Positions 3,799 through 61,900 of a DNA stretch of 64,000 nt are shown piece by piece. The notes below the pieces were generated by a model, which was given only the letters and a program-made list of their open reading frames with translations, was not told where the DNA came from and did not search any database. Positions within the stretch are counted from its first letter, which is position 1. Each line of letters begins with the position of its first letter. The stretch lies in assembly GCF_003991155.1 (NCBI RefSeq), contig NZ_CP031294.1. One strand, given 5' to 3'. The DNA comes from Escherichia coli. GTDB taxonomy: Bacteria > Pseudomonadota > Gammaproteobacteria > Enterobacterales > Enterobacteriaceae. Made by a program: the position numbers and the translations under genes.

Positions 3799-4131
3799 TC
3801 AGTTCAGGTGCCCCCACTCACACAGCCTTTCACCTATCGTATTGTGGATAAGCAACTGTCGCTCCGTTTCCTCAGTCATAAAATCCTCTCTACTCACATA
3901 GATAGGATTTGCAGCATCGCAGAATAGCACGCCTGGAGCCTGCGTCTTAATCACGCACCCATTTATCAAGCAGCTCGCGATGAACACCAGAGGCATCTTT
4001 TTGCCGCACTTCATTAACCGTTTCATTTTTGACATCCACTGTGCTTTGAAGTCGTTTTCTGTCTTCCTGTTTTGCCTTCTCTTCCATTGCTCGTCGCGCC
4101 GCATTTCCGCCCATCGTGTAAGCGCCGACAA
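3799..4131 (-). CDS. candidate o-spanin-like lipoprotein (true start probably internal, near 4026)
   Basis: ORF in alternate frame overlapping the 3' end of the preceding TM protein gene; internal MKRLMKCGKKMPLVFIASC resembles a lipoprotein signal with lipobox. Confidence 0.3.
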   Translation of the reverse strand: MSALTRWAEMRRDEQWKRRQNRKTENDFKAQWMSKMKRLMKCGKKMPLVFIASCLINGCVIKTQAPGVLFCDAANPIYVSREDFMTEETERQLLIHNTIGERLCEWGHLN

Positions 4132-4198
4132 GAACGAAAAGAACGGCAGCCAGCGTAATCAAAGCAACTTTTAGCTTTGTCATCAGGCTGCCTAGCAT
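3947..4198 (-). CDS. candidate i-spanin-like protein (N-terminal TM helix, charged C-terminal part)
   Basis: 83 aa; hydrophobic N-terminus LKVALITLAAVLFVLVGAY followed by charged region; directly downstream of putative endolysin. Confidence 0.35.
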   Translation of the reverse strand: MLGSLMTKLKVALITLAAVLFVLVGAYTMGGNAARRAMEEKAKQEDRKRLQSTVDVKNETVNEVRQKDASGVHRELLDKWVRD

Positions 4199-4199
4199 A

Positions 4200-4919
4200 T
4201 TAGACCATCCCTTTCTGGTGTCTTCTTACCTGCGACCAGGCGATAAATCCAGCCACAACAATAGTGGCAATACCGAAGATGATGCGTACTGTATCCCCGC
4301 TAGAGATATGACCTTGTGCTTTATCCATAGCAGCGGAAACCTGCGGCATAACATCGGCCAGCTGCGCCAGACCAATACCTGCTGTAACAGTTGCGCCAGC
4401 GGTTTCTTTAGTTACAGGAACAGCCTTCACGGTTTTCACCGGCTTAACGACGCCAGCTCGACGCAGACCTTCCTCAATAACTTCTGCCGCATACCAGGTG
4501 TTCAGCGTTTTTAGTGGACCTCGACCATTCTCGTGGCGAATGATTGCCTCAACCAAAGGTCGAAGGATGTCGTAATCATGCAGATCGATGATCATGTCTG
4601 CGGTTACACCAACGGCTTTAGACACCTCATTAATGTAGGCGTCAGTGTTGTTTTCATTCGGCGGTGCCCAACGTTCAATAACTTCACGAATGGTATCGAT
4701 ACTTGAGCCGTCTTTTGCGCGACGTTTGTCGTGGTAGGTAATTAGAGTCACCGCCAGCGCACGAATCCCCCAAACAGGGTCTTTAAACGTGCAAAAGCGC
4801 GGTTCGTCTGGATTCGCAACCAGACCTTGCCACGGTGATCCTTTATCAAGATTACCGGGGTTATTATTACGAATGCCTCTCGGAGTCTTCATCCTTGATC
4901 TCCTGTTATTGCAGTCCAC
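4200..4919 (-). CDS. putative phage peptidoglycan hydrolase / lysis protein with C-terminal hydrophobic anchor
   Basis: 239 aa; GIRNNNPGNL N-terminal motif; C-terminal TM-like IIFGIATIVVAGFIAW; position between holin-like and spanin-like genes. Confidence 0.4.
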   Translation of the reverse strand: MDCNNRRSRMKTPRGIRNNNPGNLDKGSPWQGLVANPDEPRFCTFKDPVWGIRALAVTLITYHDKRRAKDGSSIDTIREVIERWAPPNENNTDAYINEVSKAVGVTADMIIDLHDYDILRPLVEAIIRHENGRGPLKTLNTWYAAEVIEEGLRRAGVVKPVKTVKAVPVTKETAGATVTAGIGLAQLADVMPQVSAAMDKAQGHISSGDTVRIIFGIATIVVAGFIAWSQVRRHQKGMV

Positions 4920-5241
4920 TTTTTACGCCATACGCGGCTAACCCCAAAAGCAGTGCGGTAATAATGAACGACGTTATTTTAGAAACAATGCCGCCAAAGA
5001 ACCCACTTGAGATGGAATCTAACCGGTTAAGGAGTTTGTCCAGATTGGAGTGTTGAATACTATGTTGCGCCGGGGTCATATCACCAAAGTAGGTTTTCAG
5101 CTGATCATTGACCTCCTGGCCAATTTCTTCACGTAGCTCTTTACCTAATTTGCCAACAACCTCCCGAGCAACGATCGCGGCAATACGCTCAACTTGCTCT
5201 GTTGTAACGCCCGCCATCTCGTTCGACATGTTTTCCTCCAT
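4906..5241 (-). CDS. small membrane-anchored protein, holin-like position
   Basis: 111 aa with C-terminal TM segment ITSFIITALLLGLAAYG; first gene of lysis cluster. Confidence 0.3.
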   Translation of the reverse strand: MEENMSNEMAGVTTEQVERIAAIVAREVVGKLGKELREEIGQEVNDQLKTYFGDMTPAQHSIQHSNLDKLLNRLDSISSGFFGGIVSKITSFIITALLLGLAAYGVKSGLQ

Positions 5242-26530: not shown

Positions 26531-27406
26531 TTAAATTTTTACATTGGTCAGTGCAGCGATAGCCTTATCGTGCTTATTCGCCAGAGAGCAGTACCACTTC
26601 ACACGGGTACGTACTGCGTCTTTGTTCTGTACAGTACCAATGTTTTCAACAACGATACCTGCGTTGTCGCCGCCATACAGACCAGTAACGCCGTTCTCTT
26701 CTGACAGATGCAGGCAGTAGATGCTTGCTTTGCCAGAATCGGTCGGGATGAAGTCGTTGATGATGAACGGAACGCCGTTATGACACAGCATCGGACGACC
26801 GAAGTTCTCCATCATGATTTCAGACGGACCTACGTTTACTGTACGCAGCAGCGCACGGTAAGCACGCAGGTGCTCTGAACGCATCATGATGCAGTCAGCA
26901 CCAAGATCTTTCACCGCATCGACCAGTTCGTCGAACATAGAGAAAGTCATAGATGCACCGGCGATATCGATCTTCTGATCTGCGTGCATCAGGCGTGGAA
27001 TGCCGTCAAACGCCTTGTTGTTGGAGCTGGAGTCACCCAAAATCAGGTTGCGACGGAACGCACGAGCCAGACCTTTAACTTTCTGACGAACCTGAATAGC
27101 CAACTGGTTGTTGGTGTCGGCCATAGTGGTCGCCAGGAATTTATCAACGTCTACGTCACCAGCCAGAATACGCAGTTTCGCAACGCATTCTTCGAAGGTT
27201 GCTGCACCTTCAGGGATGGTGTCGTTAACGTCGATGAAGGTAGCTTCACTCAGCGTTTTTTCACGGTTGTACAGATATGCCTTTGAATTAATTTTCATAA
27301 AAGGCAGGATGGCAAACAGGTCATCGCGATCGATGATAGTTTCGATCACACCCTGTTCAAGTTCGTTGTTAGACAGCTTTTCAGCTTCTTCACGCAGTAA
27401 TGGCAT
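26531..27406 (-). CDS. major capsid protein (HK97-fold candidate)
   Basis: 291 aa, position between scaffold and decoration genes. Confidence 0.7.
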   Translation of the reverse strand: MPLLREEAEKLSNNELEQGVIETIIDRDDLFAILPFMKINSKAYLYNREKTLSEATFIDVNDTIPEGAATFEECVAKLRILAGDVDVDKFLATTMADTNNQLAIQVRQKVKGLARAFRRNLILGDSSSNNKAFDGIPRLMHADQKIDIAGASMTFSMFDELVDAVKDLGADCIMMRSEHLRAYRALLRTVNVGPSEIMMENFGRPMLCHNGVPFIINDFIPTDSGKASIYCLHLSEENGVTGLYGGDNAGIVVENIGTVQNKDAVRTRVKWYCSLANKHDKAIAALTNVKI

Positions 27407-27431
27407 CTATCAATTCCCTTTGATTTAGATG

Positions 27432-28319
27432 TTACTTAAGTCCAATTTTCCCCAGACCGGAGGCCAACTTATCCATAGTCGACTTGTTCTTCGGTTGGGA
27501 TATTGTGTAGGTCGATTTGGAATGTGAGCCTACACCCTGCTTGGCTTCGCTACGCATCAATGCGTCAGCTTCCGGATCTGCCCGCACAATGCGTTCAATC
27601 GCGGATTCAAACGGCAACGGCTTACCTTCACCGTCAACCAGAACAGCTCGTTCTTTGTGACCTGCCGGTTTGTCATAACCCACTACGCTACCGTCTTCAC
27701 CCACTTCAAAATGAGAACCGTAGATCACGCGGGCTTTTGCCGGGGTCATCAGAACTTTGTCACGTAGGAAGAGAGAGTTACTGAAGGAAGCGCCCACGGT
27801 CATCTCGACTAATTGAGATTTCAGTGATGCGTTTTCACTTTCCAGTGCTGCATAACGTTCGTCACGCTGTGCCAGCTCTGCCTGGTGTGCTTCGATCATC
27901 TGTTTTTTAACAGCATCGAACTCACCACGACGCTCCAGTTCAGCTTGCTCCGCCTCACGACGTGCGTTTTCTGCGGCCTGTTCAGCTTCTAAAAGCTGGC
28001 GAGCACGAGCCGGATCGATATCACCGTACTGAGCAAGCTGATCGGCCAATGTGCGCTCTTTCTCTTTGCGCTTCATGTTCTCCTTCAGCAGTTCAGCACC
28101 AGCTTTCTTGGTTTTACGAAGTTCGGCCAGTAACTCTTCCTGAGTCATGCCAGCGTATTCGTCATCGCCCTTCGGCTGCTCTTTTTGTTCACCCTGTTTG
28201 TCAGGATCTTGTGTACTCTGCTCATTATCAGCAGCTACACCGCCAGCGCCTCCACGCTCATGCGCTTCAGCGACATCCATCAGACCACGACGGGCCAAAA
28301 GCATTTGCCACAGATTCAT
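27432..28319 (-). CDS. scaffolding protein
   Basis: 295 aa, highly charged coiled-coil (EAEQAAENARREAEQAELERR), between portal and capsid. Confidence 0.6.
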   Translation of the reverse strand: MNLWQMLLARRGLMDVAEAHERGGAGGVAADNEQSTQDPDKQGEQKEQPKGDDEYAGMTQEELLAELRKTKKAGAELLKENMKRKEKERTLADQLAQYGDIDPARARQLLEAEQAAENARREAEQAELERRGEFDAVKKQMIEAHQAELAQRDERYAALESENASLKSQLVEMTVGASFSNSLFLRDKVLMTPAKARVIYGSHFEVGEDGSVVGYDKPAGHKERAVLVDGEGKPLPFESAIERIVRADPEADALMRSEAKQGVGSHSKSTYTISQPKNKSTMDKLASGLGKIGLK

Positions 28320-59119: not shown

Positions 59120-59366
59120 ATGTGGCATAAAAGGGGAGCAAGCTAAACGTAAAGGTGCAAACTCTCTATTTCGGTCAACGAAACACAAGGGCCATTTGGC
59201 CCTTGTTATTAACACGTTGCTTTACGGACTAGCGGATAAGCGAAGTAGATCGCCAGACCAATGAGGACGCCATCAGAAATGACAGACATCATCTTTCCCG
59301 TAAAATCCACCAACACCGCCATCACCAGAAGAGCAATGACGATCACAAGCCGGAATCTCTCAAGCA

Positions 59367-59792
59367 TTAGAGATAAGCATCCAGTGACAACTGAAGCGCC
59401 TGGGCGATCTTTTTCAGTGCCTGCTCTTCTTGTTCACCAATGCCATCCTGATCGGCAATATCAAGGCACAGACACAGAACATCGACCGCCTCTGGAGTAC
59501 CCGCAATATCAGACAGCTCACGAATAGCCTGTGCATTAGCAGAACGAGGGGACGCTTCGTAACGAGCACGGATATTGGCGCTCATTTGGGCAATTTCACC
59601 AGCAAACGGAGAAAACGCAGGCAGAGCTGCAATTGTCTTCTCAAGAATGGCAATTTCTTTTGCGTCACATGTGCCGTCGGCATAGGAGATCATGTACGCG
59701 CCCCACACGGTGGCCTCAACCGCATCACGGTTCTCCATTTTTTTGACTTCGATAACTGCTTTACGAGTTTTCTTTTTGAAGAAACCTAACAT
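59367..59792 (-). CDS. TerB-like (tellurite-resistance TerB domain) protein, tentative
   Basis: 141 aa; two D-x-DG-x-x-x-x-E segments (SYADGTCDAKE, IADQDGIGEQEEQA) as in TerB. Confidence 0.45.
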   Translation of the reverse strand: MLGFFKKKTRKAVIEVKKMENRDAVEATVWGAYMISYADGTCDAKEIAILEKTIAALPAFSPFAGEIAQMSANIRARYEASPRSANAQAIRELSDIAGTPEAVDVLCLCLDIADQDGIGEQEEQALKKIAQALQLSLDAYL

Positions 59793-59885: not shown

Positions 59886-60074
59886 TCAGAAATAACCAAG
59901 TACCGAACCGACTGGAAAAACAAAAATCCCAACTACACGAGCCAAGGTCATGCCAGCCTGAAACTGGAGATCGCCAGAGCAAACAAGTTTTATAATGTTC
60001 GATACCCAACCGGCGGCCATGAGGGCAAGAATTGCCAGCCAAATTTTTCCAAAGTGATTTGAAAACCAGTTCAT
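59886..60074 (-). CDS. small membrane protein
   Basis: 62 aa, two hydrophobic segments. Confidence 0.35.
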   Translation of the reverse strand: MNWFSNHFGKIWLAILALMAAGWVSNIIKLVCSGDLQFQAGMTLARVVGIFVFPVGSVLGYF

Positions 60075-60083
60075 ACAACCGCC

Positions 60084-60578
60084 TTAGTCACAGCATGATC
60101 CTGAGTAACCGGATGAACTTGAGGTATCGCATCCACCGTCATCCCATCCAGAGTGACAGGACGCTCTACTGGAGTGGTGGTAATTGTCGTCGACGGAGGT
60201 GTGGTGATGGATGAACCCGGCATCAAAAGGCTCTGGCCGGCTGGAACGGCTACCGTCGCCAGTGAAACTATAATGAGAACGTAGGCCATTGGTTTCAGCC
60301 TCTTTCTTTGAAAATTTTCCATTCGAACTGTCCTTGTTGTTTTTCTCCTTCACTAAAGGCCGTGTACTTTTCGCTTCGCGTGAAGAACCAGAGGCAACAA
60401 TCGCCCCCACGTTCGCAACAACTGACGCTTGATTATCTAAACGTTCATTCAGCAACCGAACGGTAGTCTCTAGTTCATCAAGACGTGACATAACACGACC
60501 GCTAAACAATTCGGCCAAAATTTGACGTAAAGAACGAGGACGTTTAGTTGCAGAAGTGAAATAGGTTTGACGTGCCAT
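60084..60578 (-). CDS. hypothetical protein (C-terminal half may be artefactual; a signal-peptide ORF is embedded in another frame)
   Basis: 164 aa ORF; embedded ORF 60071..60322 begins MAYVLIIVSLATVAVPAG. Confidence 0.3.
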   Translation of the reverse strand: MARQTYFTSATKRPRSLRQILAELFSGRVMSRLDELETTVRLLNERLDNQASVVANVGAIVASGSSREAKSTRPLVKEKNNKDSSNGKFSKKEAETNGLRSHYSFTGDGSRSSRPEPFDAGFIHHHTSVDDNYHHSSRASCHSGWDDGGCDTSSSSGYSGSCCD

Positions 60579-60723
60579 GTGGACTCCATCCAGTGTCAGA
60601 AAGAGTTGCGGCTGGCGATTGCCAGCCGCCTTTCTCGTTCCATCCTGGAACTGTGTCTTACCGACACATTGTCATCCTGACGCTGATAAGATACATGATT
60701 TAAAATGATAGGTAAACACTTAC

Positions 60724-61317
60724 TTACCACTTGTTATAAACAAAACCAATATCTTTCTTGTGAGGCATATCTGCTGCTGAAAAAGCTGCGATCTTCGCGA
60801 GTCGATCACATATTTCATTTTCACGATGCCCGGCGTGACCTTTAACCCACTTCCAGCGAACATTATGTCGACTTGCGGCCTCATCCAGACGTTTCCACAG
60901 ATCAACATTCTTTACCGGTTTTTTATCAGAAGTCATCCATCCATTACGTTTCCACCATTTCATCCACTGTGTCATGCCGTTTTTCAGATACTGGCTATCA
61001 GAGTACAAAATAACGTTGCATGGATATTTCAAACGCTCCAGCCCGATAAGTGCGCCCATCATCTCCATGCGGTTATTGGTGGTGCTATGAAAACCATCTG
61101 AGAACTCGCGTTCCTCACCACGATACTGGAGAACGATACCGTAACCGCCCGGGCCACCCGGATTTTTAAGGCAAGAGCCATCACTAAAGATTTTCACGGT
61201 TTTGAGCTGGGGATTGAACTCTACGACAGGCGTTGTGGGATTGGTGCGGGGAGAATTTTTGTTTTTGGCTTTTTTGCGAGTTTTTGCTTGCGATCGGGCT
61301 GGTGTCTTCGTCGTCAT
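60724..61317 (-). CDS. RNase HI-like ribonuclease with basic N-terminal extension
   Basis: Start set at ATG 61317 (MTTKTPAR) with AGGAG SD; four acidic residues align with the RNase HI catalytic D/E/D/D positions by recalled alignment to E. coli RnhA. Confidence 0.75.
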
Positions 61318-61900
61318 ATAAACTCCTGAATCAAGCGCCGCGCCGATTTTTTCCTCGCGCGTGCGCACACGCGTGCGTGTTAATAATTATTAAAATAAAC
61401 AAATTACTTCCCAGAACAGGTTTTTTATAAACCTGAACTGAACGAACGAAGTGAGTGAAGTTCACCTCGAACGAAGTGAGAGGTTGTCTTTTCAGGTAAT
61501 ACTCTCCCAGGGAGGTGAGTATAAAATTCCTCACCAACCTGGTCGTTTCATAACCTGAAAAGCTATGGTCTAAGTCTACTGCCAGCTTAGACTTGGGAAG
61601 TTATGGATGACAGCACCCCAGAACCGAGATCTTCCCACACTTTATGAAGGGGAGTACTGGATTCAACCTCTCGAAACACCCCAGACTCGACAATCATAAA
61701 GTGACCCTTGTCTCTGCTCACTTTGGTTCCCCCTTCCCCGACACCTAAACGGCACCGGTTCTACGCTGGTAGTGAGCTTTTTTAAACCTGACGCCAGTGA
61801 CGCTTACCCCCACCCATCAGGTCGAGTCTCCAGTCTACGACTGGAAACTATCAGATCTTAGCACTTACAATTCACTTTATGAATAGTTTGTACTTATCTA

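Follow-up and report, generated by a model that had tools for sequence, protein, structure and literature searches.

The subject of this analysis is a 64,000-nucleotide (nt) stretch of Escherichia coli DNA (contig NZ_CP031294.1 of assembly GCF_003991155.1), here called the window, and within it a locus at which a small gene for a predicted exported protein lies almost entirely inside a longer gene, in another reading frame. The longer open reading frame (ORF) encodes 164 amino acids (aa), the ORF embedded in the +1 frame of its distal half encodes 83 aa, and a gene for a 62-aa membrane protein follows. Because a 1.1-kb query around the locus matches plasmids and phages (pPK8276-110kb, a plasmid of E. 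coli, at 100% identity, and Cyrano, an Escherichia phage that is the phage-plasmid pLF82 of strain LF82, at 99%), the window is judged to be a phage-plasmid of the SSU5/pHCM2 type. By comparing the locus across this family, we hypothesize that the two overlapping ORFs are a true dual-coding pair in which about 240 nt are translated in two frames, an explanation that we favour and to which we assign a probability of roughly 0.75. The comparison points to an asymmetric constraint, strong on the embedded gene and, on the tail of the longer one, weaker though still real.

An earlier sequence-only reading of this DNA had listed the three ORFs, and all of them are present on the minus strand (Table 1). 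That reading had also held that the C-terminal half of the long ORF is overlapped out of frame, and the comparison agrees: the +1 ORF is open in all eight lineages examined and appears to be under selection. In the public records inspected (Cyrano, PhiR41_1, SSU5, and the RefSeq annotations of many plasmids made with the Prokaryotic Genome Annotation Pipeline, PGAP), the long ORF (CYRAN_83, SSU5_091, WP_021520147) and usually the 62-aa ORF are called hypothetical proteins, and the embedded ORF is annotated in none of the RefSeq and phage records among them. The embedded sequence is listed by some GenBank and UniRef entries under the name 'hypothetical protein', its homologs P0031, P0034 and P0035 have been called as stand-alone genes, and PHROGs holds a separate family for each of the two frames.

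Table 1. Features of the locus and of the lysis genes of the same element. All coordinates, here and in the text, are window positions, and all ORFs and locus features listed lie on the minus strand.
Feature	Position	Strand	Remark
Long ORF, 164 aa	60084..60578	-	frame 0; phrog_10411, E 9e-78
Shine-Dalgarno sequence (SD) GGAG of long ORF	60584..60587	-	5 nt upstream of ATG (60576-60578)
Embedded ORF, 83 aa	60071..60322	-	+1 frame of long ORF; phrog_15659, E 1e-48
Internal SD AAGGA	60331..60335	-	8 nt upstream of embedded ATG (60322)
Overlap of long and embedded ORFs	60084-60322	-	~240 nt
Part of overlap encoding signal-peptide-like N-terminus	60239..60322	-	embedded aa 1-28; strongest +1 dominance
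T4 run (CCTTTTG)	60225..60228	-	T3 variants fuse long N-terminus to embedded frame
ATGA overlap	60071..60074	-	embedded TGA shares bases with 62-aa ATG
Two-transmembrane (TM) protein gene, 62 aa	59886..60074	-	phrog_6006; CYRAN_84, SSU5_092
TerB/TciA-like gene	59367-59792	-	downstream of and co-oriented with 62-aa gene
DUF3927/TciB-like membrane protein gene	59209-59367	-	downstream of and co-oriented with 62-aa gene
GC-rich hairpin, 9 bp (8 GC)	60608-60629	-	~30 nt upstream of long ORF, between rnhA and long ORF
Terminator-like hairpin	59185-59206	-	directly after TciB-like gene; possible end of unit
Lysis cassette	~3799-5241	-	= Cyrano 26739-28157, annotated as lysis genes there
Holin	4906..5241	-	counterpart of Cyrano holin
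Endolysin, hydrophobic C-terminus	4200..4919	-	
Rz-like i-spanin, N-terminal TM domain	3947..4198	-	
Rz1-like o-spanin, lipobox LINGC	inside ORF 3799..4131	-	ORF overlaps i-spanin gene

Constraint on the two frames of the overlap

Eight lineages were compared: the window's E. coli type; the type shared by SSU5, pHCM2, Citrobacter and Enterobacter; E. coli p1919D62-2; Klebsiella ST13-OXA48phi12.3; Salmonella pSA20094620.2; Cronobacter; and two metagenomic or Logan lineages. The proteins encoded by the overlap are about 40-60% identical between these lineages, and 69 IMG/VR loci were added to the set. Within the overlap, frames 0 and +1 contain no stop codon in any of the eight lineages, each lineage has 3-7 stops in its +2 frame, and with a single exception the antisense frames are interrupted by stops too; in the N-terminal, single-coded part of the long ORF, the +1 and +2 frames carry the usual stops. 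Both frames are intact in 67 of the 69 IMG/VR loci, the remaining two (L064 and L089) each being disrupted by a frameshift. In all eight lineages the distance from the frame-0 stop to the embedded stop downstream of it is 13 nt, despite indels and differences in length (158-179 aa for the long ORF, 83-92 aa for the embedded one).

Mean pairwise diversity at the three frame-0 codon positions is 0.29/0.21/0.51 over the 79 ungapped codons of the N-terminal part and 0.39/0.28/0.24 in the overlap, where the most variable position is therefore the third position of the embedded frame. In a sliding-window analysis the wobble signal switches exactly at the embedded ATG, with bootstrap intervals that exclude zero on both sides (P < 0.0002), and over the first 36 overlap codons the diversity is 0.37/0.20/0.13. 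A codon-usage score computed from the single sequence shifts to the +1 frame in the overlap and shifts back for the 62-aa gene. For the part of the overlap that encodes the signal-peptide-like N-terminus, amino-acid divergence is 0.26-0.32 in the +1 frame versus 0.46-0.51 in frame 0.

The long frame also bears marks of selection inside the overlap. With the embedded protein held fixed and its codons shuffled synonymously, frame 0 stays open in 1-18% of trials per lineage, and a tree simulation with selection on the +1 frame only leaves frame 0 open in all eight lineages at P = 0.002-0.004. T occupies about 21-33% of +1 third positions and is never found before the 9-13 'danger' codons of each lineage, where it would create a frame-0 stop. 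At +1 four-fold sites, taken as embedded codons whose four-fold-degenerate prefix is kept in all lineages, diversity in the overlap is 0.146 and 5/8 sites are invariant, compared with 0.539 and 1/13 in the single-coded part (Mann-Whitney P = 0.001); the frozen +1-silent sites are the first bases of invariant Asn, Leu and Gly codons of the long frame. The +1 wobble diversity of the overlap, 0.39-0.40, is also lower than that of the flanking single-coded segments (0.51 and 0.58). A codon-usage and periodicity analysis of each frame had been named by the sequence-only reading as one check to be made; now that it has been run, it favours the +1 frame in the overlap, while stop avoidance and the frozen silent sites show that the long frame is constrained as well, and coding potential is not confined to a single frame, the outcome that the reading had named as refuting it.

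Several results weigh against dual coding. Amino-acid conservation of frame 0 is weak in the overlap (fitted omega 0.5-1.0), frame-0 identity exceeds the +1-only model in only about 10/16 lineage pairs, and the frame-0 tail combines atypical codon usage with predicted disorder. With the long protein fixed, the +1 frame is open in 25-90% of synonymous shuffles (P 0.25-0.9). The simulations rest on uniform rates and a simple model of mutation, and counts of within-clade polymorphism are flat everywhere, the single-coded part included, and hence uninformative. In the embedded product, the putative signal peptidase site departs in some lineages from the canonical residues at -1 and -3. Finally, databases hold frameshifted variants, which may be either sequencing errors or real pseudogenes; if they are not errors, the locus would be dispensable, in the plasmid state at least.

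The alternative that survives best builds on the first of these points. On this view nothing matters beyond the embedded gene and the helical N-terminal domain, and the C-terminal 80 residues of the long ORF are an unselected read-through tail, translated because no stop codon has chanced to arise. The view is consistent with wobble and codon usage that belong to the +1 frame in the overlap, with the omega values and the predicted disorder of the tail, and with disrupted long ORFs whose embedded ORF is intact (for example P0079, with 15 member sequences, in which the long ORF is truncated or frameshifted). We nevertheless consider it unlikely, since it does not account for stop avoidance over eight lineages, for the missing T before danger codons, for a frame-0 stop that keeps an identical position despite indels, for +1-silent sites frozen where frame 0 has invariant Asn, Leu and Gly, or for the invariance of Cys141, Trp145 and several Gly residues in the tail.

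It is very improbable that only the annotated 164-aa gene is real and that the embedded ORF is a chance opening produced by Ser/Gly/Asp/His-rich composition. The frequent opening of the +1 frame in the shuffles just mentioned, and the lack of an embedded call in the PGAP and phage annotations inspected, are in keeping with such an origin; the variability switch exactly at the embedded ATG is not, nor are the invariant start Met, the conserved SD, the stop that overlaps the next start, the signal-peptide-like architecture kept in nine lineages, and the better codon usage in the +1 frame. Simulations with selection on frame 0 only give +1 amino-acid identities far below those observed in 15/16 lineage pairs (P <= 0.007, with P about 0 for nearly all pairs), and on the tree they leave all eight +1 frames open at P = 0.0007. 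Because such simulations fail to reproduce either the identity or the openness of the +1 frame, the embedded ORF is best regarded as a real, selected gene, with constraint on it dominant in the first ~35 codons of the overlap.

Still less credible is programmed +1 ribosomal frameshifting, of the kind known from dnaX or from tail-chaperone G/GT recoding, which would join the helical N-terminus to the C-terminus of the embedded frame. Matching fusion proteins do exist in databases, some at the CCTTTTG run (P0012-P0014, P0017) and others elsewhere (P0032, P0033, and loci L064 and L089), but these stem from the loss of 1 nt of DNA at short homopolymers in several different places, a pattern that sequencing errors or mutations would explain. 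In the right register there is no canonical slippery heptamer (X XXY YYZ), the position of the frame-0 stop is conserved, and an invariant ATG, an SD and a signal-peptide-like N-terminus would be pointless within a fusion.

The locus has also recombined. Since the mosaic alleles P0004, P0008 and P0015 and the locus L079 each join an N-terminal half and an overlap from different lineages, recombination has taken place inside the long ORF, close to where the overlap begins.

The three predicted products and their proposed coupling

The sequence-only reading had described the N-terminal half of the long ORF as protein-like, and both its frame-0 wobble pattern (0.29/0.21/0.51, as above) and its structure prediction bear this out. 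The long protein begins with a basic N-terminus and a coiled-coil-like helix, which AlphaFold places at about aa 17-70 with a block-mean predicted local distance difference test score (pLDDT) of up to 91 (the confidently modelled long helix spans residues 28-70), and continues into a Ser/His/Cys/Asp-rich tail that includes FDAGFIHHHTSVDDNYHH and ends in CCD. With pLDDT below 50 over most of residues 70-164, this tail is predicted to be disordered, and it contains, together with Cys141 and Trp145, an invariant Gly144 and further invariant Gly residues, a His-rich patch and usually a Cys-rich C-terminus. Because no hydrophobic or TM segment is found in the long protein (the maximum Kyte-Doolittle value is 1.45 in a 15-residue window, at residues 51-65, and none exceeds 1.6), it is probably cytoplasmic.

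For the embedded ORF an SD of its own had been proposed, and besides the AAGGA of the window there are counterparts (AAGGA, GGAG or AGGGA, 7-9 nt upstream of the start) in all lineages. Its length had been left at 72-83 aa, and here the longer form prevails: Met1 is invariant in an alignment of nine lineages and the SD is kept upstream of it, while the Met of the MAY start (60289), from which the 72-aa form would begin, is Ile in two lineages, and that start was rejected. Folding of the RNA around the internal start in the eight lineages revealed no shared structure that masks the SD or the AUG.

The embedded N-terminus does resemble a signal peptide, as had been suggested. A positively charged n-region, MENFQRKRLKP (+4), precedes a hydrophobic core of 14-15 residues, both of them conserved, and the mean Kyte-Doolittle hydropathy over 15 residues (KD15) reaches 2.53 at residues 12-26; the structure model has a helix at residues 3-25. 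After the core come a Pro-x-x-Gln motif (invariant Pro27 and Gln30), a variable Thr/Pro-rich linker and an invariant LDGMxxDxI motif. This architecture suggests a Sec signal peptide or a signal anchor. The candidate cleavage site in the window lies between the A and the G of V-P-A-G, giving a putative mature peptide GQSLLMPGSS...VTLDGMTVDAIPQVHPVTQDH..., and the corresponding residues in other lineages are I-P-S, I-P-T and T-P-V; cleavage is uncertain because the -3 and -1 residues vary in this way.

The downstream protein has the two hydrophobic segments expected of a two-TM protein, again as first read. Its gene keeps a length of exactly 62 codons in every one of the seven lineages where it occurs, and its wobble pattern is normal (0.36/0.19/0.58). 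The embedded stop and the start of this gene overlap in seven of the eight lineages, as ATGA in six and as GTGA in the Klebsiella lineage (L005), and the sole lineage in which they do not (L017) has no 62-aa gene at all; translational coupling of the two genes is therefore predicted. In Klebsiella ST13-OXA48phi12.3 (L005 1240-1440) and in pJN2-26 the 62-codon two-TM homolog, with its GTG start in GTGA, is unannotated. Distant relatives of the protein are found in Vibrio and Aeromonas phages, and in Vibrio phage 1.177.O (L093 2450-2656) and Aeromonas phage AsC4_1 (L092 1399-1584) they are isolated small membrane-protein genes. The Vibrio relative, annotated as 'TMhelix containing protein', stands alone on the opposite strand among head-completion genes in the manner of a moron, and, unlike the 62-aa gene here, these phrog_6006 relatives have no upstream embedded partner that we could see.

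Similarity searches add little on function. None of the three proteins has a significant match in Pfam or NCBIfam, PHROGs offers only families of unknown function, and PADLOC gives no match at E <= 1, whether with the three proteins or with their TerB/TciB neighbours. Searches of PDB sequences yielded weak coiled-coil-type matches only, for instance to the helix of the long protein, and the AlphaFold models are of low confidence except for one helix per protein. When the N-terminal domain was used for a profile search and the embedded protein for a full HMMER scan, all that came back were truncated or frameshifted members of the SSU5-like family, with no relative beyond it, and no ancestral, non-overlapping arrangement was identified in these searches.

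Comparison with lysis genes and other compact loci

The layout had been likened to embedded gene pairs of lysis or exclusion cassettes, and in the case of lysis the likeness holds for the geometry and fails for the role. Least probable of all the alternatives is that the overlapping ORFs are an embedded i-spanin/o-spanin-like pair accompanied by a small class II holin-like protein: a +1 embedding from about 0.5 L to near 1.0 L, as in lambda Rz/Rz1 (PMC6139136), and a downstream protein with two TM segments fit that reading, but the long ORF lacks a TM segment (its KD15 peaks at 1.45), there is no conserved lipobox Cys (8/9 lineages lack any Cys in or after the core, and only the Klebsiella form has 'ITIC', where the lipobox is defined as [LVI][ASTVI][GAS]C in PMC6139136), the element has holin, endolysin, Rz-like and Rz1-like genes of its own 55 kb away, and the locus lies among DNA-metabolism and accessory genes. 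With lysis genes elsewhere, no TM domain in the long ORF and no conserved lipobox Cys, membership in a spanin or lysis system fails, and the role of the locus is not lysis. The 62-aa protein was considered separately as a class II holin and rejected; its two TM segments are present, but its gene is 55 kb from the endolysin gene and a separate holin is annotated in Cyrano.

The dual-coding pair shares with lambda Rz/Rz1 a gene for a small, here presumptively exported, protein lying (almost) entirely within the +1 frame of the distal half of a longer gene, and an embedded product that is Pro/Thr-rich and unstructured. It differs in that the long product has no N-terminal membrane anchor and the embedded product no lipobox Cys, and in that the locus stands outside the lysis cassette, with an embedded ORF that extends 13 nt past the long stop and a third gene that is predicted to be coupled to it. 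Embedded spanin genes are usually missed by gene callers (PMC6139136), and disorder-promoting residues are enriched in genes that arose out of frame, according to Rancurel et al. as cited in PMC6139136.

The small phages and viruses provide other overprinted pairs. In phiX174, gene E lies within D, and K lies across A and C. As in such pairs, both same-strand frames at the present locus seem to be selected, one with typical and the other with atypical codon usage, the atypical one encoding disorder. Unlike them, the pair belongs to a phage-plasmid of roughly 110 kb with no obvious pressure for genome compression, and the overlap takes in no more of the longer gene than its tail.

A third comparison is with the tciA-tciB operon of P1. 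In the window's lineage, TciA-like and TciB-like genes come directly after the pair and the 62-aa gene, all on one strand, and two hairpins enclose the block. The three proteins themselves differ from that operon in having no similarity to Pfam, NCBIfam or PADLOC models, and SSU5, pHCM2 and several other lineages keep the pair without TerB/TciB genes.

Genomic setting, proposed history and meaning

The locus query matches 210 of 5,426 complete E. coli genomes, nearly always on plasmids, and distant blastn matches extend to 679 plasmid records (Klebsiella, Escherichia, Enterobacter, Salmonella pHCM2, Citrobacter and Cronobacter) and to phage SSU5. In its neighbourhood of DNA-metabolism and accessory genes, the locus is flanked by rnhA and the TerB-like gene. 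The TerB/TciB genes are not linked to the pair in all lineages; SSU5 and pHCM2 carry a Rha-type gene in their place. The GC-rich hairpin upstream of the long ORF, which is also found upstream of the Cronobacter homolog (L013), may be the upstream boundary of the transcription unit, a leaky terminator, an attenuator or an RNA-processing site, and it is possible that this hairpin and the one after the TciB-like gene bracket a five-gene transcription unit. The rnhA gene (60724-61368, minus strand) is an intact 214-aa ORF with a GTG start in the window; in pPK8276-110kb it is flagged by PGAP as a 'frameshifted' pseudogene, and Cyrano annotates a shorter, 197-aa version.

We propose the following working of the dual-coding pair. 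Ribosomes that start at 60578 would make the 164-aa protein, a helix followed by a disordered Ser/His/Cys-rich tail, and the internal SD and ATG at 60322 would open the 83-aa +1 ORF, whose signal peptide or anchor would place a Thr/Pro-rich peptide with the LDGMxxDxI motif in the periplasm. Ribosomes that end at the embedded TGA could begin again at the ATG that overlaps it, the start of the 62-aa gene, such that the exported peptide and the 62-aa membrane protein would be made together and paired at the inner membrane. Of the two overlapping genes, the embedded one is probably the older, because it has genome-typical codon usage and the dominant constraint and the long tail is atypical and disordered; the tail would probably have come from read-through over the embedded gene and been retained since. 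In the simplest history, a gene for a short helical protein lost its stop codon and came to read through a secreted-protein gene almost to its end.

The most likely role of the locus appears to be an accessory envelope function in the lytic cycle, for example exclusion or envelope modulation, and expression during lytic development fits the locus better than a lysogenic 'moron' role. A fuller account, which we offer tentatively and regard as doubtful in its entirety, is that the long tail was born de novo by loss of a stop codon over an older secreted-peptide gene, that both readings have been selected across the family since then, that the His/Cys-rich tail has a function of its own (such as metal binding), and that ribosomes translating the long frame through the internal start set the amount of the exported peptide and of its coupled 62-aa partner. 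If this were true, the locus would have a built-in control of translational ratios for a three-protein envelope module.

No major concept is changed by these results, and the overlap is real but modest in its implications. As a clean natural case of dual coding with opposite constraint strengths, the pair may serve as a benchmark for detectors of overlapping genes and in the study of gene birth by overprinting. Because the records annotate only the long ORF of the overlapping pair, a conserved small protein, predicted to be exported, is missing from the gene lists inspected, and its 62-aa partner is missing as well from the Klebsiella phage-plasmid records inspected. Phage-plasmids of the SSU5/pHCM2 type are common in clinical Enterobacteriaceae, as exemplified by pHCM2 of Salmonella Typhi and by pLF82/Cyrano of the Crohn's-associated strain LF82, and for this family the analysis draws attention to a small module, directed at the envelope, as a candidate for an accessory function.

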